Source of the DNA: Geosiphon pyriformis uo1
Taxonomy: Eukaryota; Fungi; Glomeromycota
Direction of reading: 5' to 3'
Length of the DNA: 64,000 nt
Assembly (NCBI GenBank): GCA_016748015.1
Contig: JAAOMT010000523.1
Span: forward strand, 1,284,546-1,348,545
The position numbers and the translations under genes are program-made. Positions 7,711 to 54,137 of the stretch are shown here, one piece after another. Below the pieces are notes generated by a model. That model searched no databases and was not told the DNA's origin. It saw only the letters and a program-made list of their open reading frames with translations. Position 1 is the stretch's first letter, and every line of letters begins with the position of its first letter.

Positions 7711-8099
7711 ATATAATGATTTTTTTTGGTTGTGATAAGTAATGGTCTGACTAAATTAATTCCAACTCTGTCAAAAAGTTGTCCAACTTTGATTAGATTT
7801 AAAAGTTCTGTGAAATGAATTCCTTCTCTTTTTTGACAACTATTACAAGATTCTACATATTGTTGAATGTTTTTTTGCATATGTGACCAAAAATAATCAA
7901 GAATTCTTTGGATTGTTTTATCTCTTCTCAAGTGTGCTGAAAATGGATCTGTGTACATGTTGTATATAATTGTTTCTTTTTTATTCTCTTGTACTAATCT
8001 GAATAGTTGGTTTGGATTTCTACAATTTTTATAATAGATTTTGTTGTGGTGTATGAAATATTGTTTTGATTAATGTTATAATCGATGTTTTTTACTTGG

Positions 8100-9010
8100 T
8101 GTTACCAGAGGTTTTTGGTCTCTTTTCTTAAATATTGGTAATGTTAATTTGCTGTGAATTCACGTTTTCAGGAAGTAGTTGAACCTCCAATAATTGAATT
8201 TATCTTCAAATTATCTCCTATAATTTGAACTGCTGGGCTTATAAGTGGAATGGCCAATTCCTTGCCAGTTACTTTATGTAGTTACATTGTAGTAAACGTC
8301 AACTCTTTCCCAGGAATTGCTCATCTGGAAGCTCACTAAAAATGTGTAGTTACTTTGCTGTAAAAGTCAACTCTTCTACAGAAATCTTGTCTGTAGGCTA
8401 CCCTAATGATTGTAATAAGAAAAAAAAAGGAAAATAAAAGAAATATAAAAGAAATAGAATTTTGTCAAGAGAAACGTTTTCTATCCAGGCCTGGAGTCAC
8501 TAACAGTTTACTGAAATTGGTAGCTAATCAATTTCGAAATGTTAGTTGGATTTTGGGGATTTTCCAAGTACAATAATTAAAGAATTTGGTTTTTTCGAAT
8601 TATTTGATATTTATTTCTTTTTGTGTGTATAGGAACGGTTTTAAGAGATAAATCTAAAGTAAGATACATTTTCCAGAAGAAAAAAGCTCTTCTTTTATAC
8701 AACTTGTTGTAGTACTAGTTTATGAACTTGCACTTTTTTCTCTTTGCCCAAATTCCGGCAAACTAAAGATACATTTTGATGAACTACAAGTTATTTCGCT
8801 GAACNNNNNNNNNNNNNNNNNNNNGGGTATTGTGTAATTTGATCATCCTACTTTCTGTTATACTAATTAGATTATTTTAATTGAATCGTGATATGTGATA
8901 ATTGATTAAATAATAAATAATAATTTGAAATGATATTAATATACTAATGAATTATAGGAATTATAAGGGTAATTTCATGCTAATTAATAGCTAAAATTCT
9001 ACTGGTAACA
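8100..9010 (-). repeat. 3' LTR of element A (assembly gap 8805-8823)
   Basis: TGTTACCAG...CTGGTAACA 9-bp terminal inverted repeat; TATAAAAG on the minus strand near 8692-8699. Confidence 0.95.
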
Positions 9011-9656
9011 TAATCTCCTCCTCAAGACTGAGCTCCGTCGAAATCCAAGCACTATCTGTAATATTGAGATAGTGATCTAAAATGATTGAAGTAATCTGGT
9101 CTGAAAATTGTTGAAATTTCAGTTCTGTGAGTTTGCCAATGTATTGGACTTTCATTGATTGCAGTATTGGATTTTGTAGAACATTTTCACAAGTATTAAA
9201 CAAATCATAGAGTCTAAAAGCTGCTCTAAGTTTGTAGCAAGTGTTTGTTGGTCCAGCTGCTGTTTTGAATTCATTGTAGATTTGTTTTTGTATAACTTCA
9301 GGAGTAAGATTTGTTGCTTCAAGTTCCAGTTTTCGTTCATAAAGTGTTTTTCCAATTTGAAAGTATTTATAGATAGGGGTGTGTTCATTGTTCTGTTTAT
9401 TAAGAAGTAGTAGTAGTTTTTGTTGCATTGTAGCATTTGGTGGAATGTTAATAGGGGCAATTAGCAGATTTTCTTCTAGTGTCTGCTTCAAAAGTCTTGG
9501 TAATCTATTCTCAGAGTGACTTCTTGTTTCTCTTCTATAGAGGTGATAGTTCTGTAAATGATTTGCTACTGGGGCTGTGGTTTTTTTCTGAATGTATTTA
9601 ATTTGACTTCCATTAATCGTTATAGATAAGTCAGGGAGTGTTTTTAAGACTAACAT
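8991..9656 (-). CDS. Element A ORF3: 221-aa protein of unknown function in the env position; stop lies inside the 3' LTR
   Basis: Intact ORF with decayed homologues at the same position in B, C, E and F (motif YFQIGK...AAFRLYDLF...IGKLT). No signal peptide or TM helix seen. Confidence 0.82.
   Translation of the reverse strand: MLVLKTLPDLSITINGSQIKYIQKKTTAPVANHLQNYHLYRRETRSHSENRLPRLLKQTLEENLLIAPINIPPNATMQQKLLLLLNKQNNEHTPIYKYFQIGKTLYERKLELEATNLTPEVIQKQIYNEFKTAAGPTNTCYKLRAAFRLYDLFNTCENVLQNPILQSMKVQYIGKLTELKFQQFSDQITSIILDHYLNITDSAWISTELSLEEEIMLPVEF
9011..9023 (-). promoter_or_regulatory. Polypurine tract of element A (GAGGAGGAGATTA)
   Basis: Purine run immediately 5' of the 3' LTR on the sense strand. 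Confidence 0.85.
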
Positions 9657-9847
9657 TAATTTTTGGGATATTTGTTAAATATTTCGGGGAATAATCATAA
9701 TAAAATTGACTAATTATGAAAAGAGAGAATAAAGAAAATTATTTTTTTTTGGATATGGGGTTTTTTTTATTTGTTTTTGGGTTTGGGTGTTTTGTAATTA
9801 TTTGCTATTTTTGTCTTTGTGTTTTTAGTAGAGAATTATTGTAAAAT

Positions 9848-11233
9848 TTAAGTGTTCAAGTTTGGTTGTTGTTCTATTATAATTATTGGTTTTAAATTTT
9901 GGGGAATATCTTCAGAATTAATTAAAGGAGAATGTGTACCAATTTGTGGAATTAATGGTTCAGGATTGTTTCTGGAATGATAGTGTTTCAGTCTGTCTCC
10001 ATGTGCAACTTTTGCTAATATTTTGTCATCAAGTCTTAACTTATATGATCTATTACCTAGAATTTCGTGAATATAAAATGGTCCATCCCATTTGTTTTCA
10101 AATTTCCCACTCCATTGTTTTTCAGCCTTAGTTCTGTGTAAGAGAACATTATTTCTAACTTTAAATTCGTTGGTAATAGATGGTAATTTGTTGTCATGTC
10201 TTTCTTTTTGTTGAGCTTGGAAATGTTCAATATGAGCTGCTGCTATTCTTCTTTTTCCTTCCAGTGTACTAAGAAGAGTGTAGGCTCTTCTTTGGAGTGT
10301 CTCTTGAAAGTTTTCTTCATTGATTGGTTGCATTGGGTATGTTTCTACTGTGAAATTAATTGGTAATGTTGCTGTCCTTCCATAAGTAAGATCAAATGAT
10401 GTGTGTTTCGTAGTATCTTGTTTTAGTGTTCTGTATGCTAGTAACACTGATGGAATAAAGATATCCCATTCCTGTTCAAAGTCTGTTGAGACTTTGGCTA
10501 AAGATTCACACAATGTTCTGTTGAAATGTTCTACAAGTCCATTTGTTTGAGAGTGATAAGGTAATGATAGAGGTCTTTTAACATTGAACCGTTCACAAAT
10601 TTTTTGTATCAAGTTGTTCACAAAATGTGTTTCTTGATCAGATAAGAGTTCAAATAGGCATCCATGTCTACAGATAATATCTTCATAGATGAATTTTGCT
10701 ACTGATTTTGCATCTGCTCTTTGGATGACTCTAGCTTCAAGCCATTTGGTAAGATAATCCACTGCAACTACAATATAATGATTTTCTTGGGTTGTGATAG
10801 GTAATGGTCTGACTAAATCAATTCCAACTCTGTCAAAAGGTTGTCCAACTTTGATTGGATTTAAAGGTTCTGTGAGGTGAGTTCCTCTTCTTCTTTGGCA
10901 GTTATCACAAGATTCTACATATTGTCGAATGTCTTTTTGCATGTGAGGCCAAAAATAATGTTCAAGGGTTCTTTGAATTGTTTCCTCTTTTTCCAAGTGT
11001 GCTGAAGACGGATCTGTGTACATGTTGTATAATATTGTTTTTTTTTCATTCTCTTGTACTAATCTGAGTGGCTGGTTTGGTTTTCTGTGATTTTTATAAT
11101 AAATTTTATTCTGGTGTATGAAATATTGTTTTAATTGGTGTTGTAAGTGGTGTTTTTTACTTGGAGACCAGTTTTCTGGCATGGTAAGGGTCTCCAAATA
11201 ATTTTTAAGATTGCTGTAGTTTCTGGAGTCCAT
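9848..11233 (-). CDS. int: Element A integrase, stand-alone 461-aa ORF (zinc finger, DDE core, GPF module, no chromodomain)
   Basis: H...YFWPHM...CDNCQ; VGIDLV, LLSDQETHF, NGLVEHFN; KWDGPFYIHE...SYKL. Open frame but with likely damaging substitutions (first zinc-finger His appears as Tyr). Confidence 0.93.
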   Translation of the reverse strand: MDSRNYSNLKNYLETLTMPENWSPSKKHHLQHQLKQYFIHQNKIYYKNHRKPNQPLRLVQENEKKTILYNMYTDPSSAHLEKEETIQRTLEHYFWPHMQKDIRQYVESCDNCQRRRGTHLTEPLNPIKVGQPFDRVGIDLVRPLPITTQENHYIVVAVDYLTKWLEARVIQRADAKSVAKFIYEDIICRHGCLFELLSDQETHFVNNLIQKICERFNVKRPLSLPYHSQTNGLVEHFNRTLCESLAKVSTDFEQEWDIFIPSVLLAYRTLKQDTTKHTSFDLTYGRTATLPINFTVETYPMQPINEENFQETLQRRAYTLLSTLEGKRRIAAAHIEHFQAQQKERHDNKLPSITNEFKVRNNVLLHRTKAEKQWSGKFENKWDGPFYIHEILGNRSYKLRLDDKILAKVAHGDRLKHYHSRNNPEPLIPQIGTHSPLINSEDIPQNLKPIIIIEQQPNLNT

Positions 11234-11290
11234 TCTTGTTTGGTTATTTTGTTGGTAAGTTGGTAAGTTGTGGTGAAATTGTTGTTGGTA

Positions 11291-12664
11291 TTAATCTTGT
11301 CTCATTTTTGAGAGGCTATCGACATTGGTATGTAGTTTTCCTGGTTTGTGGTGTACAATATATTTGTAGTCTGCTAGGAAGTCATTCCATCAAGACTGTT
11401 TGGCACTCTGTTCAGTTTTCTTTTTATTGAGCCATTTGAAGCCAATGTTGTCCGTTATTATGTCAAATTCTTTTCCATTTTTCAGATATTGTTAAAAATG
11501 TTTAAGAGCCCAAATAACTGCAGCAGCTTCCAATTCAGTTGAGCCATATTTGAGTTCTGTTGGCTTGAGTGTTCTGCTGGCATAGGCAATAACTTGTTCT
11601 TGGCCATTTTCATCTAATTGTGATAAGATGACACCAAATACTATATGTGAGACATCAGTGGCTAATTGGAATCATTTGTTGAAGTCTGGGTAAGCAAGAA
11701 CTGGGGCTGTTGTCAATTTTGTTTTGAGAATTTCAAAAGCTTTTTGTTGTTCTTCAGTCCATTTGTATGGTATGTTTTTGTTGGTAAGATAATTGAGTGG
11801 TTTGGCAATTTCTAAGAATCCTTTTATGAATTTTCGATAGTAAGAGGCTAATCCCACAAATCCTCTTAGTTCTGTAGTATTTCTGGGGGTTTGAAAGTTT
11901 TTAACAGCATTGATTGTTCCTGGATTTGGTTTGATTCCATCTTTACTAACTATGTGTCCAAGAAAGATCAAACTTGTTTTTCCAAAGTGACATTTCTCAA
12001 TATTTAACTTTAATTCTGCTTTCTGTAATCGTTGAAAAACTTCTTGCAGATGAATGAGATGGGCTTCAAAGCTTGGTGAGTATACATCAGTATCATCAAG
12101 ATAAACAACTACTAATTGCCACAAAAGCCCTTCATAGACAACATCCATGAGTTGCTGAAATGTTGCTAGTGCATTGCAGAGTCCAAAAGGCATAACATTA
12201 AACTCATAATTTCCTTCTTGAGTGGTGAATGCTGTTTTGGGTCTATCTTTTGGGTCCAATTCGACTTGCCAGTATCCACTTTTCAGGTCTAAAGTTGAAA
12301 AAAACTTGGCTTTTCCCAGAGCATCTAGCATGTTATTAATTCTTGGAAAAGGGTAGGCATTTCCAATTGTAACACTATTCTGTTGTCTATAATCAACACA
12401 GAATCTAATTTTTTCGTTTTTCTTTTTAACTAAAACTACTAGTGAGGTCCAAGAACTTCTTGATGGTTGAATCAATTCGTTATTGAGCATTCTTTGGATC
12501 TCTTCTCTGATAAATTGGTGGCTGGTAGGTGGCACTCGATAAGCTTGTTGATGTTTTGGTAGAGCATCTCCTGTATGGATCTGATGTTGAACAATGTTTG
12601 TTTTTCCCAAGTCATTGTTGTCTTTTGCAAATATATCTGCAAATTCAGCTATCAATTGTTTCAA
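11291..12664 (-). pseudogene. pol: Element A reverse transcriptase plus RNase H domain
   Basis: IRFCVDYR, FSTLDLKSGYWQ, TAFTT, VMPFGL, VVYLDDT, FLGH, GFVGLASYYRKFI. RNase H continues in frame past 11672 with stops. Confidence 0.95.
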
Positions 12665-13135
12665 TTGTCTTTGTTGTTAAGGTTCTAAGGAATCCATATT
12701 AATTCGAGAGAGTTTTTCTTCCAACAAGTGGTAGTTTTCAGTAGTGGGAATGATATTTGTATTTGGGAGTAGAGTGTGCTTTATAATTTCGATGAATTTA
12801 GAGACAATTTGAGAGTTTTCATCTTGAAAGATATTGCTGTGTATGATTCCAATTTCTAATTTGTTTAATAAAACAATAGGGTAATTATTGGGGTTGTAGA
12901 ATGTAACTCAAAATTTTTTTATTCCTTTGGGAATATAAACATTTGGAATTGATATTTCATGCTTCAAACAGATTTGTTTATTGGATTCAAAGATTTGTTG
13001 TGTAGTGGTGGGTTTTGAGCAAGTGTAAATTTCGTGATGTTTTCCAAAAAGTGAAATGGTAATTGGCTGAGGAAGTTGAAGAATCTGGTGAGATTCATTT
13101 TGTGTATTAAGAACTATGTTTACTGGAACTGTAAA

Positions 13136-13510
13136 TCATCCAGTTGAACCAAAACCTTGAGTTCCTCTTTCACTTTTTCCCAATTGTTCTCTGTTGTTTA
13201 CTGATTGTAAACCCGAAATGTTGATTAAGGGTAAGTAAATTGCTTGAGCAATTTTTTCAGCATGTTCAATTTTGAATGGTTTGTCTGTCTCATTCTGTAA
13301 CATGATGGTAATGTCTCCAGTGTATTCTGTATCTATAACTCCTCCTCTAATATTGATTCTTTTGCTTGCCAATGATGATCTGGAGGCAATTTGAACCATT
13401 GCTTCTGGTGGAATTTTAAGAGCAATTTTTAAATTGATTTTTGTCAAAGACTTTGGTTGGAGAATCAAAGTATCTTTTTCTGGGTATCTCAAGTCATATC
13501 CAGCATCAAT
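13136..13510 (-). pseudogene. dut: Element A dUTPase domain within pol
   Basis: All five trimeric dUTPase motifs: DAGYDL, ASRSSLA, GGVIDTEYTG, KIAQ, RGTQGFGSTG. Confidence 0.95.
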
Positions 13511-13689
13511 TTTGTGTGCTTTTTCTGGTCTGATTCCTTGGCCATGGTTGTCAAAATATTTAAGATGTAGAGGTGGTTGCTTTTCAAGAAGATAGATGGG
13601 AGTGGTTGGTAGTTCTTCTACTTATTCAGATACTCCAAATTCGATTTCATTTTTATCATTCTCATCTGGCAGAGGAATGCTAAGAGCAT

Positions 13690-14290
13690 AACATTCTAAA
13701 CACCATTGGTCATCACAAAGCCTAACACATTCTTCACACAATTAAATGTTCATTTGCTCTAATCGTTGAATTTGAGCTTTTTTGGTCGGATATGTGTGGC
13801 TTGCAATTTGGTGGTAGGTTTCTACTTCATCTTCATAATCAAATCCAGCTAATTCCATAGTGTACTCAATATATTCGGCTTCTTTCATTTGGTGGACATC
13901 TTCTTGAGTGGCTCTATTGATTAATGCCATTGCTAGGTCAAAAATCATTTCAGCATCATAAGAGTAGTGGTAAAGTTTATTGAGAGCACTGTTGTATGCT
14001 GCATCAAATGGTGTCTCTCTTCTGACTTTTTCCGAGATTGATAGAGCATATTGACAGGTTTGATCACATACTCCTCCTCTCATTGCTACATCAATCCAAT
14101 TGCATTCTTCTGGTAGTATTTCTCCACATGTAAGACAAGGTGTGTTGTCCCATTTTCCACTTCTTTTTGGAGATCCAAATCGTTTTCTATGGCATGCTTT
14201 GCAAAAGTAACAGGTACAAGTTTCATATTCCTCTTCTAGAGAAATACATGCTTCCATTGATGAAAGTTTTTTGTTGCAATCTTTGCATTT
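13690..14290 (-). other. Cys-rich domain of pol between protease and dUTPase (putative Zn-binding)
   Basis: CKDC..CKAC..CLTC..CDQTC...CEECVRLCDDQWCLEC, with the same spacing visible in B, C, E and F. Confidence 0.75.
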
Positions 14291-16940
14291 GAGTGGAATA
14301 TAGAGTGGTTGTTTCTGTGGTTCTGGTGTAGAATATCTAACTTTTTTTCATCCCCTTGATTCTTTGAAAATCTCTTGTTCGGTTTCTTCAGCCCAATTGG
14401 ATGTTGATCCAAGAGCCATGTAGGTTTTAGTAAGTGGCATTTCTTTCTCCTCTTCAAATTCAAATACTGGAGCTTTTTCTGATCATTTATTAAAGGTATT
14501 ACAGGTTGCAGGTACTATAGTATATTGTCCTTGGTATGAGATTTTAAGTTCTTAAGTTTCCCAGTTCAGGTTTGCATTGGCCTTGAGAAGCCAATCATTT
14601 CCAACTAGAGCTTGGTATTGGGGTGCATCCATAATAAGAACTTTAACTGAAATGGTGATTCCATCAATTGAAAAAGGGAAATCATCAATTTCTCCTACTG
14701 GAGTCTTCTTCATATCATCAGCTGTGACAATAAATGTTTAAGCTGGTCTGTTTACGTTTTGTTTAAGTTGTTGCATCAGCTGGTAAGTGATAATACTTCT
14801 AGCTGATCCACTATCTAAGATTAAGCAAATGGGTTTTTCTTCTACTGTAGCTTCTGTGTACATGGCAGTAATTGCTTTCTGTTCATTGACTGCTGCATTA
14901 CTAAGCAGAAATGGTGATTCATTTGCCTCAAATTCAAATGGAAATATATCTGACAGATTAGCATTTTGGGCAATTTGAGCTGGGAGAATGGTGTGGTTGG
15001 AAGAGTTTGATCTTGGTGCTGCAATTTCACCTTCAGAAAGTGCAGTTTGTTGAAAATCCGATTCTTCTGGTATTGTAAGATAACTGGGTTGAGTGTGATA
15101 GTAATTGGGTCTTTGCTGGCCCGAATTTCTGGGAACCAACTGGTTATTTGGATTGATTCTGTTGTGGTTATTCTGCAATTGATTCTGGGGTGTGAATTGG
15201 TTATATTGAACCAATTTTCTTGCTAGTACTTGATATTGTTGAGTGAGTGGTGTCTGATATGGCTGAATTGGTAAAGGTTGCTGATATTGTTGCTGCATTG
15301 ATTGTGGAGCTGGTAGATAGTAACTGTTTTGATTTTGTGGTCTTGGTGAATAATAAGTTGGTGGTGGAGATTGGTAATAGGATTGTTGTGGTGAAGAGTA
15401 ATGTTGATTACTCCTGTTTTGTTGGTCTCTTTGTAATTTTCTACAATCTTGTTTCCAGTGTCCTGGAATTCCACAATAATGACAATTTTGAGATTGGTTG
15501 TTGGATGATGATCTAAAATTGTTTTGGTTGTGTTGTTGTGGGGGTTGATATCTTTCTGGTTGTTGTTGCTATTGTTGTTGGTTTGTGAAGTAGCTTTCAA
15601 CTTTTTTTGTGAGTTGGTTTATCTTTTCTTCAGCTGCTGAGCTGGTTTTTCCAATTGCAAGGTTTACAAGCTTGGTGTGATTTACTTCTTTCATTGCCAT
15701 TTCATAACTCTTTGCATGTTTAATAGCAGTTGCTAAGTCTGCTGGAGCATGTGGATGGACTTTTTTAATCAGTTTGTCTTTTAACCCTGTTATAAACTGA
15801 TCCAGAATTTGAGCATCAGAATAGTAGTCATTGGTTTCCAATTGTCGGATTCATCTAAGAAGTTTGTTAAATCTTCTGAGATAGGTTATAACAGATTCAG
15901 ATATTTCTTGTTTGATATTGCAAAAGCGGTTTCTGAGAGTGATAGAGGTATTGTTGTTGGTGAATTGTTATAGAAAAACATTTTTAAATGCTTGCCAGTT
16001 TTCAAATGGTTCTTCTAAATTTTCAAACCATTCTTCTGCTATTCCTTGGAGAAAGTAGGGAATTGCTTTGAGCATTCTTGCTGCAATCCAACCATTTGCA
16101 TCTCCTGCTTTTTGAACTTTGTCCAGCCATTCTTGGGGACTGGTATCATTGTTTTCACCAGTGAATTCTGGGATTTTTGCAATGTAAGCAGTTGCCATTT
16201 CTTCTTCATTTTCTGGAATTTCTTCTGGTTCTGATTCAGTTTCTTTACTTTCTAAGCTTTCTGAGTGATTACTTTCGTTTTCCTGTAAGTAATCAATGAT
16301 GTTGGCACTTGTTGATATTGGTTCTTACTGTTGAGTAGGATTTCTAGGTGACTGAAAATCTTCTGGTCTGGAGAAATGGCTAAGTAGTGAACTTGGTGTT
16401 TGTGGTTAAACAAGTGAAATTGGAAATGGTGTAATAGAAAGTGGTAATTTGACACTGGTTTCTTGTTTAGGTGTTTGCAAGTGTTTGGCAGTTGTCTTTT
16501 GTAGTGTTAGAGTGTTTGGAGTGGTTCTTGAGTATTGCTTCAATCTTTGTTTGCCTTTATTGCTTGTTTTTGTCTCTAATTCAAACTCAAAAGAGTATTT
16601 ACACTGTACTGGGTATTTTTCTTCACAATACTTAATAATATTAAAATTAAGTTCTTGGAAGTAGATAGCAAGTGTTTCACTGTTCAGGTCTTCTGTTCCC
16701 AAATGTGAATAATGCACTAAATTATTGTAGAGGTTGCTTCTAACTTCTGAAATGTTGTAGTTTCCAAAAAGATAATTGTTGATGCAGTTTTTAATGTATT
16801 GGTATACTGATTTCTTTACAATTTCAATTCCGTCTGAAATGTTGAATCTTTGCTTGCAGTGGGTGTAAATTAACTGGTAATACTCTAGAGTTGCTGTGTT
16901 TGGTATGGTCGCCACTTTGAATTTGTTGTTGCTGTGTTAT

Positions 16941-16958
16941 TTCCATGGGAGAGCACCA
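16941..16958 (-). promoter_or_regulatory. Primer-binding site of element A (TGGTGCTCTCCCATGGAA)
   Basis: Starts TGG 2 nt after the 5' LTR end. Confidence 0.85.
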
Positions 16959-16960
16959 AA

Positions 16961-17964
16961 TGTTACCAGAGGTTTTTGGTCTCTTTTCTTAAATATTGGT
17001 AATGTTAATTTGCTGTGAATTCACGTTTTCAGGAAGTAGTTGAACCTCCAATAACTGAATTTATCTTCAAATTATCTCCTATAATTTGAACTGGTGGGCT
17101 TATAAGTGGAATGGCCAATTCCTTGCCAGTTACTTTATGTAGTTACGTTGTAGTAAATGTCAACTCTTTCCTAGGAATTGCTCGTCTGGAAGCTCACTAA
17201 AAATGGGTAGTTACTTTGCTGTAAAAGTCAACTCTTCTACAGAAATCTTGTCTGTAGGCTACCCTAATGATTGTAATAAGAAAAGAAAAGGAAAATAAAA
17301 GAAATGTAAAAGAAATAAAATTTTGTCAAAAGAAACGTTTTCTATCCAGGCCTGGAGTCACTAACAGTTTACTGAAATTGGTAGCTAATCAATTTCGAAA
17401 TGTTAGTTGGATTTTGGGGATTTTCCAAGTACAATAATTAAAGAATTTGGTTTTTTCGAATTATTTGATATTTATTTCTTTTTGTGTGTATAGGAACGGT
17501 TTTAAGAGATAAATCTAAAGTAAGATACATTTTCCAGAAGAAAAAAGCTCTTCTTTTATACAACTTGTTGTAGTACTAGTTTATGAACTTGCACTTTTTT
17601 CTCTTTGCCCAAATTCCGGCAAACTAAAGATACATTTTGATGAACTACAAGTTATTTCGCTGAACTATTGATTAATNNNNNNNNNNNNNNNNNNNNNNNN
17701 NNNNNNNNNNNNNNNNNNNNNNNNNNNTTCGGCGAATTTCTGTAAATTTCGGCAAATTTTTGAATGTTACAAAGTTCAGGGTATTGTGTAATTTGATCAT
17801 CCTACTTTCTGTTATACTAATTAGATTATTTTAATTGAATCGTGATATGTGATAATTGATTAAATAATAAATAATAATTTGAAATGATATTAATATACTA
17901 ATGAATTATAGGAATTATAAGGGTAATTTCATGCTAATTAATAGCTAAAATTTTACTGGTAACA
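16961..17964 (-). repeat. 5' LTR of element A (assembly gap 17677-17727)
   Basis: Near-identical to 8100-9010. Confidence 0.95.
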
Positions 17965-18095
17965 TTGGAAACCAATTTTCTGGCATAGTAAGAGTCTCCA
18001 AATAGTTTTTGATATTGTTGTAATTTCTGAGATCTATTGTTGTTTGGTTATTTTTGTTGATAGGTTGGTAAGTTGTGGTAGTGTTGTTGTTGGTA

Positions 18096-21000
18096 TTAAT
18101 CTTGTCTCATTTTTGAAAGGCTATCAATATTAGTGTGTAGTTTTCCTAGTTTGTGATGTACAATATACTTGTAGTCTGCTAAGAAATTATTCCATTAAGA
18201 CTGTTTGGCATTTTGTTCTGTTTTCTTTTTATTGAACCATTTAAAGCCAATATTGTTAGTTATAATATCAAATTTTTTTCCATTTTCAGGTATTGTTAAA
18301 AGTGTTTAAGAGCCCAAATGACTGTGGCAGCTTCTAATTTAGTTGAGCTATATTTGAGTTCTGTTGGTTTAAGTGTTTTATTGATATAGGCAATAACTTG
18401 TTTCTGGTGTTACCAGTAGAATTTTAGCTATTAATTAGTACGAAATTACCCTTATAATTCCTATTATTAATTAGCATACATTATTATTATTTCGATTATC
18501 ACTTATTATTTAATCAAATTATTAAATATCATTACTCAATCAATAATCCGATTTGTACTCTAGAAATTAAGATGATCAAATTACACAATACCCTGAACCA
18601 TTTAACATAGTCAAAATTCGCCGAAATTAATGAAAAATCGCCGAATAATCAATAGTTTAGTGAAATAACTTGTAAATTTGCCAAAATGTATCTTTAGTTC
18701 ACCCAAATTGTAGAAAAGAGAAAAGTGCAAGTTCAAAGACTAGTACTACAACAAGTTGTATAAAAAAAGAGCTTTTCTCTTCAAGAAAATGTATCTTCTC
18801 ATAGTATCTTACTATAGCATCCTACTTTAGATATCTTAATTAAAACAAATCACCTTTTACACATTTAAATAAAAATTAAATATTCGAAAACCAAATCCTT
18901 AAATTATTACACTTGAAATTCTCTCAACACAACTAACGTTTTGAAATTGATTAGCTACCAATTTCAATAATCTGTTAGTGACTCCAAGCCTGGATAGAAA
19001 ACGTTTCCCTTAATAAAATTCTATTTCTTTTACATTTTTTTTGTTTTATTTTCTTTTCTTATCATAATCATTAGAGTAGCCTACAGACAAGATTTCTGTA
19101 GAAGAGTTAACTTTTACAACAAAGTAACTACACATTTTTAGTGAGCTTCCAGATGAGCAATTCCTGGGAAAGAGTTGACATTTACTACAACATAACTACA
19201 CAAAGTAACTGGCATAGAATTGGCTATTTCACTTATAAGCCCAACAGTTCAAATTATAGGAGATAATTTGAAGATAAATTCAGTTACTAGAGGTCCAACT
19301 ACTTTCTAGAAACATGAATTCACAGCAAATCAACATTAACAACATTTAAGAAAAGAGACCAAAAACCTCTGGTAACACTGGCCATTTTCATTCAATTGTG
19401 ATAAAATAGCACCAAATACTATATGTAAAACATCAGTAACTAGTTGGAACTATTTGTTGAAATTTGGGTAAGCAAGACCTGGGGCTGTTGTCAATTTTGT
19501 TTTGAGAGTTTCAAAAGCTTTCTGTTGTTCTTTAGTCCATTGATATGGCACATTTTTGTTGGTAAGATAATTGAATGGTTTGGCAATTTTTGAGAATTCT
19601 TTGATGAATTTTTGATAGTAAGAAGCTAATTCTACAAATCCTCATAGCTCTGTAATATTTTTGGAAGTTTGAAAGTTTTTGACAGCACTGATTGTTCTAG
19701 AGTTTGGTTTGACTCCATCTTTGCTAATAATGTATTCAAGAAAAATTAAGCTTGTTTTTCTAAAGTAATATTTTTCAATGTTCAATTTTAATCTTGCTTT
19801 TCATAATCATTGAAAAACTTTTCACAAGTGGATAAGATGAGCTTTGAAGCTTGGTGAATATACATTAGTGTTATCTAGATAGACAACTAATAATTGTCAT
19901 AAAAGTCTTTTATATACAACATCCATAAGTTGCTGAAATGTTGCTGGTATATTGCAAAATCCAAAAGACATAATATTAAATTCATAGTTTTCTTCTTGGG
20001 TGGTAAATGCTGTTTTGGGTTAATCTTTTAGGTCTATTTTGACTTGCTAATATTCACTTTTTAAGTTTAAAGTTGGCTTTTTCTAAAGCATTTAGCATGT
20101 CATTAATTCTTGGAAGAGAATAGATATTTCCAATTGTTATGCTGTTAAGCTGATAATAATTTACACAGAATCTAATTTTTCTATTTTTTTTCTTGACAAA
20201 AACCACTGGTAAGGCCCAAAAACTTCTTGATGGTTGAATTAATCAATTATTGAGCATTCTCTGGACTTCTTCCCTAATGAATTGGTGGCTGACAAGTGGT
20301 ACTCTATAAGCTTGTTGACATTTTAGTGGAACATCTCTTGTGTAAATCTGGTGTTAAACAATATTAGTTTTTCCAAGATCATTATTGTCTTTTGCAAATA
20401 TATTAGCAAATTCAGCTATCAACTGTTTCAATTGTTTTTGTTGTTAAAATTCCAAGGGACCCATGTTAATTTGAAATAGTTTTTCTTCTAAAAAATGGTA
20501 GTTTTTAATAGTAGCAATGATATTTGGGTTTGGAAATAGTATATGTCTTACAATTTTGATAAAATTGCTAACAATTTGAGGGTTTTTATTTTGAAAGATA
20601 TTGCTATGTATGATTCCAGTTTCTAATTTATTTAATAAAACAATAGGGTAGTTATTGGAATTGTAAAAAATAACTCGAAATTTTTTATTTCTTTTGGTAT
20701 GTAAACATTTGGAATTATGATTTTATGTTTTGAACAGATTTGTTTATTGGATTCAAAGACTTGTTGAGTAGTAGTAGATTTCGAGCAAGTGTAAATTTTG
20801 TGATGTTTTTCAAAAGATAAAATGGTAATTGGATGAAGAAGTTGAAGAATTTGGTAAGATTTATTTTGTACATTGAAAGCTATATTTACTGGAACTGTAA
20901 ATCATCCAGTTGAACCAAAATCTTGAGTTCCTCTTTTACTTTTTCCTAATTGTTCTCTGTTGTTAACTGATTGTAAATCTGAAATGTTGATTAAGAGTAG

Positions 21001-24713: not shown

Positions 24714-26645
24714 TGTTACCAGTGTTACTGGAGGTTTTTGGTCTCTTTTCTTAAGTATTGTTAATGTCTAGTTGTTGCCAATTTACGTTTTTTAGAGATA
24801 GTTGAACCTCCAATAACTGAATTTATCTTTAAATTATCTCCTATAATTTGAACTGCTGAGCTTATAAGTGGAATAGCCAATTTTGTGCCAGTTACTTTAT
24901 GTAGTTATGTTGTAGTAAACGTCAATTCTTTCCCAAGAATTGCTCATCTGGAAGCTTATTAAAAATGTGTAGTTATTTTGCTGTGAAAGTCAACTCTTCT
25001 ACAGGAATCTTGTTTGTAGGCTACTCTAATGATTATGATAAAAAAATAAATAAAAAATAAAAAAAAATGTAAAAGAAATAGAATTTTGTCAAAGAAAACG
25101 TTTTCTATTCAGGCCTGGAGTCACTAACAGTTTATTGAAATTGATAACTAATCAATTTCAAAACGTTAGTTGTGTTTGAGGGAATTTTAAGTGTAATAAT
25201 TTAAGGATTTGGTTTTTGAATATTTGATTTTTATTTGATTTTGTAAAAATGATTTGTTTTAATTAAGATATCTAAAGTAAAATACTATGATAAGATATAA
25301 AAAGATATATTTTCTTAAAAAAAAAAGCTCTTCTTTTATACAACTTGTTGTAGTACTAGTCTTTGAACTTGCACTTTTTTTTTTGCTACAATTTTGGTAA
25401 ACTAAAGATATATTTTGGCAAACTACAAGTTATTTCACTAAACTATTAATTATTTCGGCCAATTTTTATTAATTTCGGCAAATTTTGACTATGTTAAATG
25501 GTTTAGGGTATTGTGTAATTTGATCATCTTAATTTCTATGATAAAAATTGGATTATTGATTAAATAATAATAATTGCTAATTTGATTAAATTATAAATAA
25601 TAATTGAAATGGTAATTATATATGCTAATTAATAATAGGAATTATAAGGATAATTTCATGCTAATTAATAGCTAAAATTATACTGGTAACACCAAAGGTT
25701 TTTGGTCTCTTTTTTTAAATATTGTTAATGTCTGATTGTTGCTAATTTACGTTTTCTAGAGATAGTTGAACCTCTAATAACTGAATTTATCTTTAAATTA
25801 TCTCCTATAATTTGAACTGCTGGGCTTATAAGTGGAATGACCAATTCTCTACCAGTTACTTTATGTAGTTACATTGTAGTAAATATTAATTCTTTTCCAA
25901 AAATTGCCTATCTAGAAGTTCATTAAAGTGTGTAGTTACTTTGCTGTAAAAGTCAACTTTTCTACAAGAATCTCATTTGTAGGCTACCTTAATAATTATG
26001 ATAAGAAAAGAAAAAAAATAGAAAAAAAATATAAAAAAAGTAGAGTTTTGTTAAGTAAAATGTTTTCTATCCAGACCTGAAATCACTAACAGATTACTGA
26101 AATTGGTAGCTAATCAATTTTAAAATGTTAATTGTGTTAAGAGAATTTCAAGTGTAATAATTTGGTTTTCAAATATTTAATTTTTATTTGAGATGTATAA
26201 AAGATGATTTGTTCTAATTAAAATATCTAAAGTAAAATACTATGTTAAGATGTGAGAAGATATATTTTCTTAAAGAGAAAAGCTCTTTTTATATACAACT
26301 TGTTGTAATACTAGTTTTTGAACTTGCACTTTTTTCCTTTTTACAATTTTGGTAAACTAAAAGTATATTTCAATAAACTACAAGTTATTTCTCTGAACTA
26401 TTGATTATTTCGGCCAATTTTTATTAATTTCAGCAAATTTTAACTATGTTAAGTGGTTCAGAGTATTGTGTAATTTAATCATCTTAATTTTTATGATACA
26501 AATCGAATTATTAATTAAATAATGATATTTGATAATTGATTAAATAATAAGTAATGATTGACATAATAATAATATATACTAATTAATAATAGAAATTATA
26601 ATGGTAATTTCATACTAATTAATAGCTAAAATTCTATTGGTAATA
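24714..26645 (-). repeat. 5' LTR of element B, split 9 bp from its inner end by a solo L1 LTR
   Basis: TGTTACCAG at 24714-24722 resumes as (CCAA)AGGTTTTTGG at 25692 and ends TTGGTAATA at 26645. Confidence 0.88.
24723..25691 (-). mobile_element. Solo LTR, family L1, inserted in the terminal inverted repeat of B's 5' LTR
   Basis: TGTTACTGG...CTGGTAACA, TSD CCAG/CCAA. Confidence 0.88.
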
Positions 26646-26649
26646 ATAT

Positions 26650-46434: not shown

Positions 46435-47380
46435 TGTTACCAGTAGAATTTTAGCTATTAATTAGCATGAAATTATCCTTATAATTCCTATTATTAATTA
46501 GCATATATTATTATTATTTCAAATATCACTTATTATTTAATCAAATTATGAAATATTATTACTCAATTATTAATCCGATTTGTACTCTAGAAATTAAGAT
46601 AATCAAATTACACAATATTTTAAACCATTTAATATAGTTAAAATTCGCCAAAATTAATAGAAATTGGCCAAAATAATTAATAGTTCAGTGAAATAACTTG
46701 TAGTTTGCTGAAATGTATCTTTAGTTTACCCAAATTATAGCAAAAAAAAAAGTGCAAGTTCAAAGACTAGTACTACAACAAGTTGTGTAAAAGAAGAGCT
46801 TTTCTCTTCAAGAAAATATATCTTTTCATAGTATCTTATTATAGCATCCTACTTTAGATATCTTAATTGAAACGAATCACCTTTTACACATTCAAATAAA
46901 AATTAAATATTCAAAAACCAAATCCTTAAAGTATTATACTTGAAATTTTCTCAACACAACTAATGTTTTGAAATTAATTAGCTACCAATTTTAATAAACT
47001 GTTAATGACTCCAGGCCTGAATAGAAAACGTTTTCCTTGATAAAATTCTATTTTTTTTTCTTATTATAATCATTAAGGTAGCCTACAGACAAGATTCTTG
47101 TAGAAGAGTTGGCTTTCACAGCAAAGTAACTACACATTTTTAGTGAGCTTCCAGATGAGCAATTCCTGAAAAAGAGTTGACATTTACTACAATGTAACTA
47201 CATAAAGCAACTGATATGGAATTGGTTATTTCATTTATAAGCCCAGTAGTTTAAATTATAGGAGATAATTTGAAGATAAATTCAGTTACTGGAGGTCCAA
47301 TTACTTCCTGAGAATATGAATTCACAGCAAATTAACATTAACAACATTCAAAAAAAAGAGACCAAAAACTTTCAGTAATA
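46435..47380 (+). mobile_element. Solo LTR, family L1, in RT of F
   Basis: TGTTACCAG...CAGTAATA. TSD is poor (TAGT/CCGT) but the host RT resumes. Confidence 0.88.
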
Positions 47381-51461: not shown

Positions 51462-52429
51462 TGTTACTGGAGGTTTTTGGTCTCTTTTTTTAAATGTTGT
51501 TAATGTCTGTTTGTTGTAAATTCATGTTTTCTAGAAGTAGTTGAACCTCCAATAATTGAATTTATCTTTAAATTATCTCCTATAATTTGAACTGTTGGGC
51601 TTATGAGTGGAATGACCAATTTTTTGCCAGTTACTTGTGTAGTTATGCTGTAGTAAACATCAACTCTTTTCCAGAAATTGCTCATCTGGAAGCTCACTAA
51701 ATGCTTAGTTACTTTGCTGTGAAAGTCAACTCTTCTACAGGAATCTTGTCTGTAGGCTACTCTAATGATTATAATAAGAAAAAAAAAGAAAAATAAAAGA
51801 AATGTAAAAGAAATAGAATTTTGTTAAGGAAATCGTTTTTTGTCCAGGCCTGGAGTCACTAACAGTTTTATTGAAATTGGTAGCTAATTAATTTCAAAAT
51901 ATTAATTGGGTTTTGGAGATTTTTCAAGTGTAATAATTGAAAGATTTGATTTTTTTGAATTATTTGATATTTTTTTTTTTGTGTATATAAGAATGGTTCT
52001 AAGTAATAAATCTAAAGTAAAATACATTTCCTTGAAGAGAAAAGCTCTTCTTTTATACAACTTGTTGTAGTACTAGTCTATAAACTTGCACTTTTTCTCT
52101 TTGCTCAATTTTCGGTGAACTAAAAATACATTTTGATAAACTACAAGTTATTTTGCTGAACTATTGATTAATTTGGGTGAATTATTCATAATTTCGGCAA
52201 ATTTTTTATAAATTTCGGCGAATTTTAGAATGTTACAAAGTTCAGGATATTGTGTAATTTAATCATCCTACTTTCTGTTATACTAATTATATTATTTAAT
52301 TGAATCGTGATATGTGGTAATTGATTAAATAATAAGTAATAATTTGAAATGATATTAATATACTAATTAATTATAGGAATTATAAGTGTAATTTCATGCT
52401 AATTAATAGCTAAAATTCTACTGGTAACA
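51462..52429 (-). mobile_element. Solo LTR, family L1 (A-like subtype), in gag of F
   Basis: TGTTACTGG...CTGGTAACA, perfect TSD ATGT/ATGT. Confidence 0.93.
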
Positions 52430-54137
52430 ATGTATTTCTGTCTGTTTTATTAATTGTTGAAGTGAGATTTCCAAACAATGATCCATATTTTCTTAATGAT
52501 TTGGTCCAACTGTGTTGACCCTAGAGGTCTAAATTTCCAGAAGTTTGTGGTGTTTCTAACTGGGTTTCTAGAGATGGGTTGAATACAATTCTACTTTGGG
52601 GTATTTGATGATATAATAGAGTTGTTGGGGAGAGGAACCTTGGTTTCTTGTTAACTGTAAACTTGGCTTGGACAGTTGTGGAGTTGTTGGATTTGTCTTC
52701 ATATTCTTCAAAGTCGAATTCTACTGGTTGTTGTACTTGAAGAAATTGTTTTGTCATGTAATATTTAATATCTGTATCAATTATGCATAGAGTTTCAGTG
52801 ATTGTTCAGGTAGTTGTGGCTGTTAAGTATCTTAATAAGCTTTGATGGATTTGTTCTTTCAGTTTTCCATTATCAGTTGTACAGTCTAATAAGCAATCAA
52901 TTTTTGCATTGATATAGTTACAAAAATCACTTTTTGCATAAGCAGTTTCTACTAATATTTCTAGATTTTTTCAAAAGTATTAAAATAATGCTTTTCTGTA
53001 TAAGAAGTGGTCCTTTTTTACTGTTTCAATAGTTGCCACTTCTGGAGTGCTCTGTCTCTGTGGATTTATAACCTCATAGGAAGCATCAAATATTATAAAT
53101 AAACTTGGTAGAATAAGGAGATAGTAACATTTGGTGCTCTCAATTATTGGTAATGTGTGTTTCATGTAATTCCAATAGCTTAATCTTTGTTTATCAGTCT
53201 CTAAAGATCTTATTTTATTGGTTGTGAATTTACTTGTTGAATTTTTTGGTTATAAGACATAGAGTTTTGGTTTTTGCTAATTGCAACTTCTTATAAAGAT
53301 GAGCTTTCTTCTCTGAACTAATAAGTGCAGTTATTAAGGTCTGGTGTTGTTTTTTTACCTTTCTGGTAAACTATCAAGATAACATTAATATTTAAAAACC
53401 TAAGAAGAACTTCTTGCTTTTACCAGACTATTACAAAGTCTATTCTTAAACAGTCAATTTTACTATGTTGCCACTCCACAAGAAAAAAATAGAAAAAGAA
53501 AAATAAAATAAAATAAAAAAAATAAAATAAAAAAAAAGATAAATTAATATCATCAATCACCATGATCAAGAACAATTGGTCCAAATTGTTAATAGTTTAA
53601 GGTGATTATACTAAAAGCATCTGTTCTAGAACAAAAATACAAAACAATAATTAATTTACATAAATTTCACAAAGTTTGAGAACATAAATTCATGATTCTG
53701 ATTTTTTAAAAATTAATTTATTTCAGAAGATGAATATGGAATATAATAAATAATAAAGAGGTATGGATATGTGATTCTTGTCTAGTGGTTTGTATTTATC
53801 TGTTTGCCTGTTTCTACCTTTTACAACTACTCACTTTTATACATTCTTTTGGTTTTACAGAATTGCTTCTGATTGTTTTATTATTGCTAACTATTGCTTT
53901 GTTATTTTTGTTATTACTTTATTTTCTTATATTATTACTAGTTATTCTATGTTATAGTATATTATCTAGTATTATTATGTATTATTCTGTATTATCTTAT
54001 GTTGTAACACATTATTCTGTACTATCCTAAGTTATAATACATTATCCAATGTTATTGTGTACTATTCTGTGTTATGTTATATTCTGGTCATATTTTTTTA
54101 TAACTTCAGATCAGTTTTTTTACTTGGGTAATAATGC

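Follow-up and report, generated by a model that had tools for sequence, protein, structure and literature searches.

Is the integrase of the element described here part of the pol polyprotein, or is it encoded by a gene of its own? The element, hereafter element A, is a decayed Ty3/gypsy long terminal repeat (LTR) retrotransposon that occupies positions 8100-17964, on the minus strand, of a 64,000-nucleotide (nt) stretch of Geosiphon pyriformis uo1 DNA (contig JAAOMT010000523.1), which we refer to as the window. In LTR elements and retroviruses, integrase is generally delivered within Gag-Pol and freed by protease cleavage. In element A, reverse transcriptase (RT, with YLDD at 12103) and RNase H (11291-12620, minus strand) end at a lineage-wide TAA stop (11293-11291). 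This stop is followed by a 57-nt AUG-free spacer (11234-11290) and by a stand-alone open reading frame (ORF) encoding integrase (9848-11233), which starts with MDSRNY and contains a zinc finger, the DDE residues and a GPF/Y-SH3 module. RNase H is also closed by a stop in window elements B, C, D, and F. The original prediction had taken this layout for that of a polycistronic lineage, with integrase and a downstream ORF3 following a gag-pol cistron. Because elements A and B have stops in common through decay (8 of 18 internal stops), the window copies alone cannot prove that integrase is split off, and stops within them are weak evidence. The same window could be that of an ordinary Ty3/gypsy element, in which the stop between RNase H and integrase arose by decay or is read through. 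Consistent with this, A's integrase is in the frame of RT and RNase H, seven other internal stops are common to A and B, and CpG is at 0.16 of expectation.

Relatives of the integrase provide the answer. A protein search identified 682 relatives; 120 were listed, and almost every one of these is a stand-alone protein of ~400-450 amino acids (aa). Their first Met is invariant in 61 aligned sequences (A and 60 of the 120 listed), matching the MDSRNY start of A at 11233. Since this search excluded long proteins, the split was tested on DNA loci, namely the 80 best among 505 confirmed stretches of metagenome DNA. In 13 of these loci the 5' end of integrase is missing and in 31 the contig carries no RNase H, which leaves 36 informative loci with RNase H. 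In all 36, RNase H, or an extension of it, ends at a stop before integrase, rather than continuing into it as in the usual description of a Ty3/gypsy pol polyprotein. Relative to RNase H, integrase is distributed 12/13/11 over the three frames. Stop and start overlap in 16 of the 36 loci (-1 to -14 nt in 15 automatically called loci, plus L028), and the other 20 have spacers of 24-727 nt. Plain decay is thereby rendered highly improbable and is already largely refuted: the split is found in every informative relative, out of frame in 24 and with otherwise open frames in many, and the integrase Met is invariant.

A search for longer, possibly fused proteins gave 57 matches, only three of which are close (44-49% identity). 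Among the other 54, 53 are at most 35% identical, the exception being a fern match at 39% identity and 25% coverage. The three close proteins are fungal gene models, two of which skip the end of RNase H, while one has neither an RT core nor RNase H; one 'fused' model, P0242, is near-identical to the stand-alone integrase P0213. The single clearly fused locus that was fetched, L001, is 33% identical and lies outside the split group. As judged by these comparisons, the split integrase is real, has its own start codon and is clade-wide. A layout of three or more cistrons, in which a gag-pol lacking integrase is followed by integrase and ORF3, is thus supported, as originally predicted, in a lineage that is wider than the window and spans Glomeromycotina. 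Separately, fungal gene models P0035, P0041, P0044, P0058, P0070, P0183, and P0241-P0243 stitch pieces of integrase, ORF3, dUTPase, and Gag into false multi-domain 'host' proteins. In L054 (4945-6702), a 587-aa extension without Pfam match follows RNase H, and is in turn followed by the 727-nt spacer to integrase.

Do these elements form a single group? In a tree of RT sequences, 27 of 28 split-integrase elements are found together with an SH-aLRT support of 97. A tree of RT and RNase H, from which distant and long-branch rows were left out, unites 22/22 split elements (support 87), and an integrase tree unites all 37 (support 80), a long-branch protein of Trametes also falling within the group. 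In both trees that include RT, the split group is nested among fused gypsy-type polyproteins, and the nearest fused relatives bear no informative names. Named members come from five Glomeromycotina genera, i.e. Geosiphon, Rhizophagus, Cetraspora, Entrophospora, and Paraglomus, which stand for five orders, and annotated copies of the lineage are present in Rhizophagus irregularis, including naturally intact ones such as the GET57239.1 cluster. A few metagenome loci have a G+C content of 45-51%, and hosts beyond the named fungi are therefore possible. These findings support the view that split-integrase elements form one clade, found across arbuscular mycorrhizal fungi (Glomeromycotina).

How, then, might integrase be translated? 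Considering that the three frames are evenly used, readthrough and a fixed frameshift are excluded, which means that integrase starts afresh. At 56 of 66 integrase ATGs there is a purine at -3, which suggests that the start is selected in the normal way. We lean, with some reserve, towards a mechanism in which ribosomes terminate and reinitiate along a single genomic RNA to produce integrase and ORF3. Ribosomes would read the extension, Gag, protease, the Cys-rich domain and dUTPase where present, RT and RNase H, starting at a GUG or at the Gag AUG. Some of them would then start again at the integrase AUG, directly where stop and start overlap or, as in A, once they have scanned a short AUG-free spacer, and a second restart would occur at ORF3. 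The junctions are built as termination-reinitiation would have them, with stop and start overlapping or close together: overlaps of the TAATG/ATGA type occur repeatedly between pol and integrase. Long spacers often contain extra ORFs of no recognized family, which sit between pol and integrase and are chained by overlaps in L038 (521-1237; ATGA twice), L042 (903-1399; -13 and -8), and L028 (602-736; ATGA). The junction between integrase and ORF3 is built alike (TGATG in L052, -8 in L010), and in element A it is an AUG-free spacer of 149 nt (9699-9847, minus strand). AUG is absent from 24 of 30 short spacers. RNase H-integrase spacers contain 6 AUGs versus 14.5 expected (p 0.01), and integrase-ORF3 spacers contain 1 out-of-frame AUG versus 8.9 expected (p 0.001).

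The main rival, which is possible although we find it unlikely, retains the same three-gene lineage and has integrase and ORF3 produced from subgenomic RNAs, generated by splicing from the 5' leader or from internal promoters. Such RNAs would tolerate any frame or spacer, including that of L054 (727 nt, 12 AUGs), and the strong -3 purine context suits ordinary scanning. In the subclade with an RNA motif described below, a CAG is mostly found 2-13 nt upstream of the ATG, and plant pararetroviruses express 3' genes from spliced or subgenomic RNAs, as set out in part of PMC5902531. However, several spacers contain no YAG at all, the nearest being up to 267 nt away, and no T-rich tract accumulates upstream of the ATG. 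Moreover, if each gene had its own RNA, there would be no need for exact overlaps of stop and start to recur and to form chains.

In one subclade, a ~35-nt covarying hairpin is found right before the integrase ATG (L010:292-338, L016:5190-5236, L025:4461-4507, and 14 more loci). A 47-nt model of this motif matches immediately upstream of the ATG in 17 loci, as would be expected if a structured RNA brought ribosomes straight to the integrase AUG, at least in this subclade. In 14 aligned loci, 140/140 pair cells are paired and 5/10 pairs are changed on both sides; the covariation score was reached by 0/500 shuffles, a control that relatedness can inflate. We nevertheless regard internal initiation as improbable: the structure was derived from the very sequences tested, the motif is found neither in the window nor in other loci, and the hairpin might just as well enhance restart or act as a splice signal. 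In 10 loci compared with Rfam, the hairpin had no match, and a hammerhead or another known type of RNA was set aside on that account. Members of this subclade in which pol can be seen have a 240-315-aa extension past RNase H without Pfam match. An R. irregularis integrase, P0200, clusters with the same subclade.

Several points weigh against restart on one RNA, and against the clade on which it is built. The trees were obtained by quick or FastTree searches and midpoint-rooted without named reference clades, and L049 falls outside the clade in the RT-only tree. There are near-copies among the loci (L013/L015, L011/L041, L037/L040/L046, and L034/L073), so that independent cases number fewer than 36. 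In-frame AUGs upstream of ORF3 are excluded by construction. Since GTA is depleted like ATG in the spacers (9 each versus 26-32 for the other four permutations), the AUG depletion is unspecific, and splice-donor avoidance may account for part of it. The long AUG-containing spacer of L054 has no bridging ORF of at least 25 codons, and in L018 103 nt are left past the bridging ORF. Ribosomes that restart past an ORF of 1,900 codons require a helper element, and A yielded no such element.

Taken together, we tentatively propose a Glomeromycotina-wide clade with no integrase in Pol, in which a truly polycistronic mRNA would be decoded by serial stopping and restarting, one subclade would have an RNA element of its own, ORF3 would be a new helical protein, and free integrase would be packaged by other means. 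Because it is not in the polyprotein, integrase needs another route into the particle, which it would reach by binding Gag, RT, or RNA.

What is the product of the third gene? In element A, ORF3 (8991-9698, minus strand) has a single premature stop close to its start, runs through the polypurine tract (PPT; window 8994-9023, coding EEE), and has its stop inside the 3' LTR, which is likewise the case in L005. A homologue is found 3' of integrase in window elements A, B, C, and D, and ORF3 shows a third-position excess between A and B. The best database match to A's ORF3 is 95% identical, and all 120 best matches listed are G. pyriformis 'hypothetical proteins'. When 25 downstream frames were compared all against all, matches connected most of them. 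An ORF3 profile built without A and L005 gave a match in 22 of the 31 loci with at least 800 nt past integrase, many of these loci being in the profile themselves. In the window, the same profile gave weak matches (iE 0.001-0.06), four of six of which fall on ORF3 positions (A, B, C, and D). A second profile comparison is not independent, as A-type rows are in both alignments. ORF3 is missing from one subclade (L018, L020, L028, L029, L034, L050, and L073), in which integrase is directly followed by the PPT and LTR.

The predicted structure of L010 ORF3 is small and all helical, with a predicted local distance difference test score (pLDDT) of 95.6; the prediction for A's ORF3 is of low confidence (pLDDT 55.8). 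No membrane segment was detected, the top 19-residue hydropathy being ≤1.05 in 21 ORF3 rows, some of which are N-terminally trimmed, and 1.01 in A's 227-aa frame. ORF3, as predicted from these frames, is a conserved family of soluble helical proteins, as yet unnamed, and, having no membrane segment, is not an envelope gene. In errantiviruses and env-bearing gypsy elements the third ORF encodes a membrane glycoprotein, which ORF3 does not, and the description of the lineage as retrovirus-like therefore fails in the envelope sense. ORF3 has no significant match in Pfam, PDB sequences, Foldseek PDB, or BFVD. A fold search by VIA-align gave a best Z of 4.8, with none ≥5, an absence of match that is no proof of a new fold. 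In Atlas, two unnamed Mucoromycota clusters match at 0.92. A match to a closterovirus coat (0.91) was rejected for having few features in common; the best PDB-sequence match, Mdm2 (E 0.11), was rejected as well. An obligatory role as restart activator was also rejected, since the subclade without ORF3 keeps a split integrase. ORF3 would instead be an optional helper, our best guess being that it acts in counter-silencing or RNA handling.

How much of the layout predicted for the first cistron is shared by the lineage? In element A, this cistron comprises, on the minus strand, an N-terminal Gag extension without ATG (16199-16936, with two in-frame stops), Gag from capsid to CCHC zinc knuckle (15443-16198, first Met at 16198), an aspartic protease (14522-14869, LILDSG at 14824), a Cys-rich domain of no known family (13637-14359), and a dUTPase (13133-13564; PF00692, E 7.7e-25), before RT and RNase H. 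A GUG start had been proposed for the extension. The candidate codon, in strong context at 16915, is GTG in A and in an L3 element (AAAGTGGC), ATG in B and C, and GTA in G. Comparing A with B gives a third-position excess for the Cys-rich domain, dUTPase, and ORF3 but none for the extension (0.21/0.19/0.19), which also has no Pfam or PHROG match. With the copies in disagreement, the GUG start is suggestive but unconfirmed. Long pre-capsid regions are common in the lineage (L016, L022, L028, L034, and L054). Protease, Cys-rich domain, and dUTPase are present, whole or partial, in six window elements of three LTR families. The Cys-rich domain, for which there is no Pfam or PHROG match and no Atlas match above 0.79, is common to window elements only and was found in none of the metagenome loci, and dUTPase was found in just one of these, L049. 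Neither therefore marks the lineage, and the full order from extension to ORF3 is real in the window copies without being lineage-wide. The dUTPase would keep cDNA free of uracil. In the linker between dUTPase and RT (window 12680-13132), a stretch resembles, by eye, part of a second degenerate dUTPase-like fold. A Spuma_A9PTase match before RT, considered as a second protease, also occurs in relatives and was read as the N-terminal lead-in of RT.

The termini show which of the other predicted traits hold. The 5' LTR of element A, of family L1, spans 16961-17964 and the 3' LTR spans 8100-9010 (both on the minus strand and with an N gap). They have TG...CA ends, differ at 12 of 891 compared sites (98.7% alike), and are flanked by the target duplication TTGG at 17965-17968 and 8096-8099. 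Perfect 4-bp duplications are found at two more L1 LTRs (CTGG and ATGT), i.e. at 3/7 ends inspected overall, and 5-bp duplications at none. The PPT, with a pre-PPT motif upstream, is at 9014-9023 (minus strand), and this motif is seen again in relatives. The primer-binding site (PBS), TGGTGCTCTC, is at 16958-16949, 2 nt past the LTR end, and is part of a U5 anti-PBS hairpin (16948-16984, minus strand). This hairpin folds in A and B (L1), in C (L2), and in the element at 2692 (L3, -30.9 kcal/mol), and it is significant in a shuffle test (p<0.05) only in C and the element at 2692. Anti-PBS pairing is not significant in metagenome loci. Of the traits put forward as common, the three LTR families, the 4-bp duplications, and the pre-PPT motif are thus confirmed, and the hairpin is present in all three families with statistical backing in two elements. 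A tRNA would prime at the PBS, to which the U5 hairpin would control access. PBSs start with TGG and diverge past TGGTGC, as different tRNA ends would. Tf1 is self-priming; a Tf1-like mechanism was set aside, given this variation and the lack of significant anti-PBS pairing in metagenome loci. At window 53124-53141, within an L2 LTR, 18 nt are perfectly complementary to the LTR end and PBS seen at 16966 and 2697.

Element A had also been proposed as a near-complete template for reconstruction. Its main frame (16936 to 9848) has 2363 codons, 18 internal stops, and zero frameshifts. Pfam detects, in order, Gag, CCHC, protease, dUTPase, RT, RNase H, integrase, and SH3/GPF-Y, the Gag and protease matches being weak. 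All catalytic motifs (DSG, YLDD, and integrase D-D-E) are there. The 17 premature stops of A amount to about three times what LTR divergence would predict on a simple transition model (~5). Conserved integrase residues are worn down as well: where 50 relatives invariably have YHPQ and VERFN, A has YHSQ and VEHFN. Because of this heavy missense and nonsense decay, element A is, judging by its reading frame, a poor template and not a near-intact one. Copying from an already defective template, or homogenization of the LTRs, may explain the excess of stops. Element A sits in the integrase gene of element B (4257-25691, minus strand), a member of the same family with ~80% nt identity to A. At the 5' end of B (window 24714-26646), two L1 LTRs abut, one apparently inserted a few bases inside the other. 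Solo L1 LTRs are found at window 18408-19377, 46435-47378, and 51462-52429, and most L1 LTRs are located within or next to other copies of element A's lineage. The family is very abundant, since 55,331 contigs of one DNA run (X1) were placed on it, and LTR elements make up 41.2% of the Geosiphon genome according to the portion of PMC11952901 consulted.

What stands out here is that integrase is a gene of its own throughout the clade; ORF3 and the new RNA motif are further leads, and the position of dUTPase is already known. A successful clade with integrase as its own gene means that the coupling of integrase to Gag-Pol is dispensable, and it raises the questions of how fungal ribosomes restart once they have read so long an ORF, and by what route integrase, being free, is packaged. 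Recognizing the ORF3 family also corrects gene catalogues, in which at least 120 Geosiphon copies are annotated as 'hypothetical proteins'. R. irregularis is a culturable host with expressed gypsy elements, as described in part of a preprint (bioRxiv 10.1101/2021.03.30.436303). A full-text literature search found no Ty3/gypsy clade with a separate integrase gene and no account of gypsy structure in Glomeromycotina, and transposable element libraries (Repbase, GyDB, Dfam, and the curated one behind PMC11952901) may hold such families.

How does the lineage compare with known systems? Like Ty3/gypsy elements (Metaviridae, yeast Ty3), it has direct LTRs with TG...CA ends and a target duplication, a PBS, a PPT, a Gag capsid with CCHC, the order protease-RT-RNase H-integrase, and RT-RNase H of the same type; Ty3 is the best solved-structure match for RT-RNase H of the intact relative L016 (E 9e-103). 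Unlike in these elements, whose pol encodes protease, RT, RNase H, and integrase in the review passages concerned (PMC3248453, PMC10224137), integrase here is outside the pol frame, Gag has a long extension, and there is a 3' ORF3. Because its integrase is outside the pol polyprotein, we class the lineage of element A as a Ty3/gypsy variant and not as an ordinary member. It differs from chromoviruses by having no chromodomain at the C terminus of integrase, as judged by Pfam for A and for the 120 listed relatives. It shares with the fungal non-chromovirus Ylt1-like and SN_1006 clades, as outlined in part of PMC2864245, the status of fungal non-chromovirus Ty3/gypsy. The position of dUTPase between protease and RT is shared with published fungal gypsy elements (PosPlaTy3-5, Tuber Tmt1, and Phanerochaete elements), for which the relevant portions of PMC2864245 and PMC6431247 mention no separate integrase. 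Unlike these, the elements described here have a Cys-rich domain ahead of dUTPase and lack a chromodomain. As far as the sections of PMC2864245 bearing on this go, that survey included no Glomeromycotina, and most of its full-length elements have one or two ORFs.

Systems that are closer in their mode of expression lie outside Ty3/gypsy. Caulimoviruses, whose TAV/P6 is encoded by a 3' accessory gene, likewise have serial long ORFs on a reverse-transcribed RNA (PMC5902531, in part). No likeness of ORF3 to TAV was seen in Pfam, PDB, or BFVD, in which ORF3 had no significant match of any kind, and one subclade has a split integrase but no ORF3. Precedents for restart, taken from part of PMC5972666, are SART1, LINE-1 (63-nt spacer), fungal victoriviruses, and hypoviruses, which resemble the present lineage in their stop/start overlaps or ~60-nt spacer. 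Those are non-LTR elements or RNA viruses, whereas here the arrangement would operate inside the pol region of an LTR element and be repeated at ORF3.

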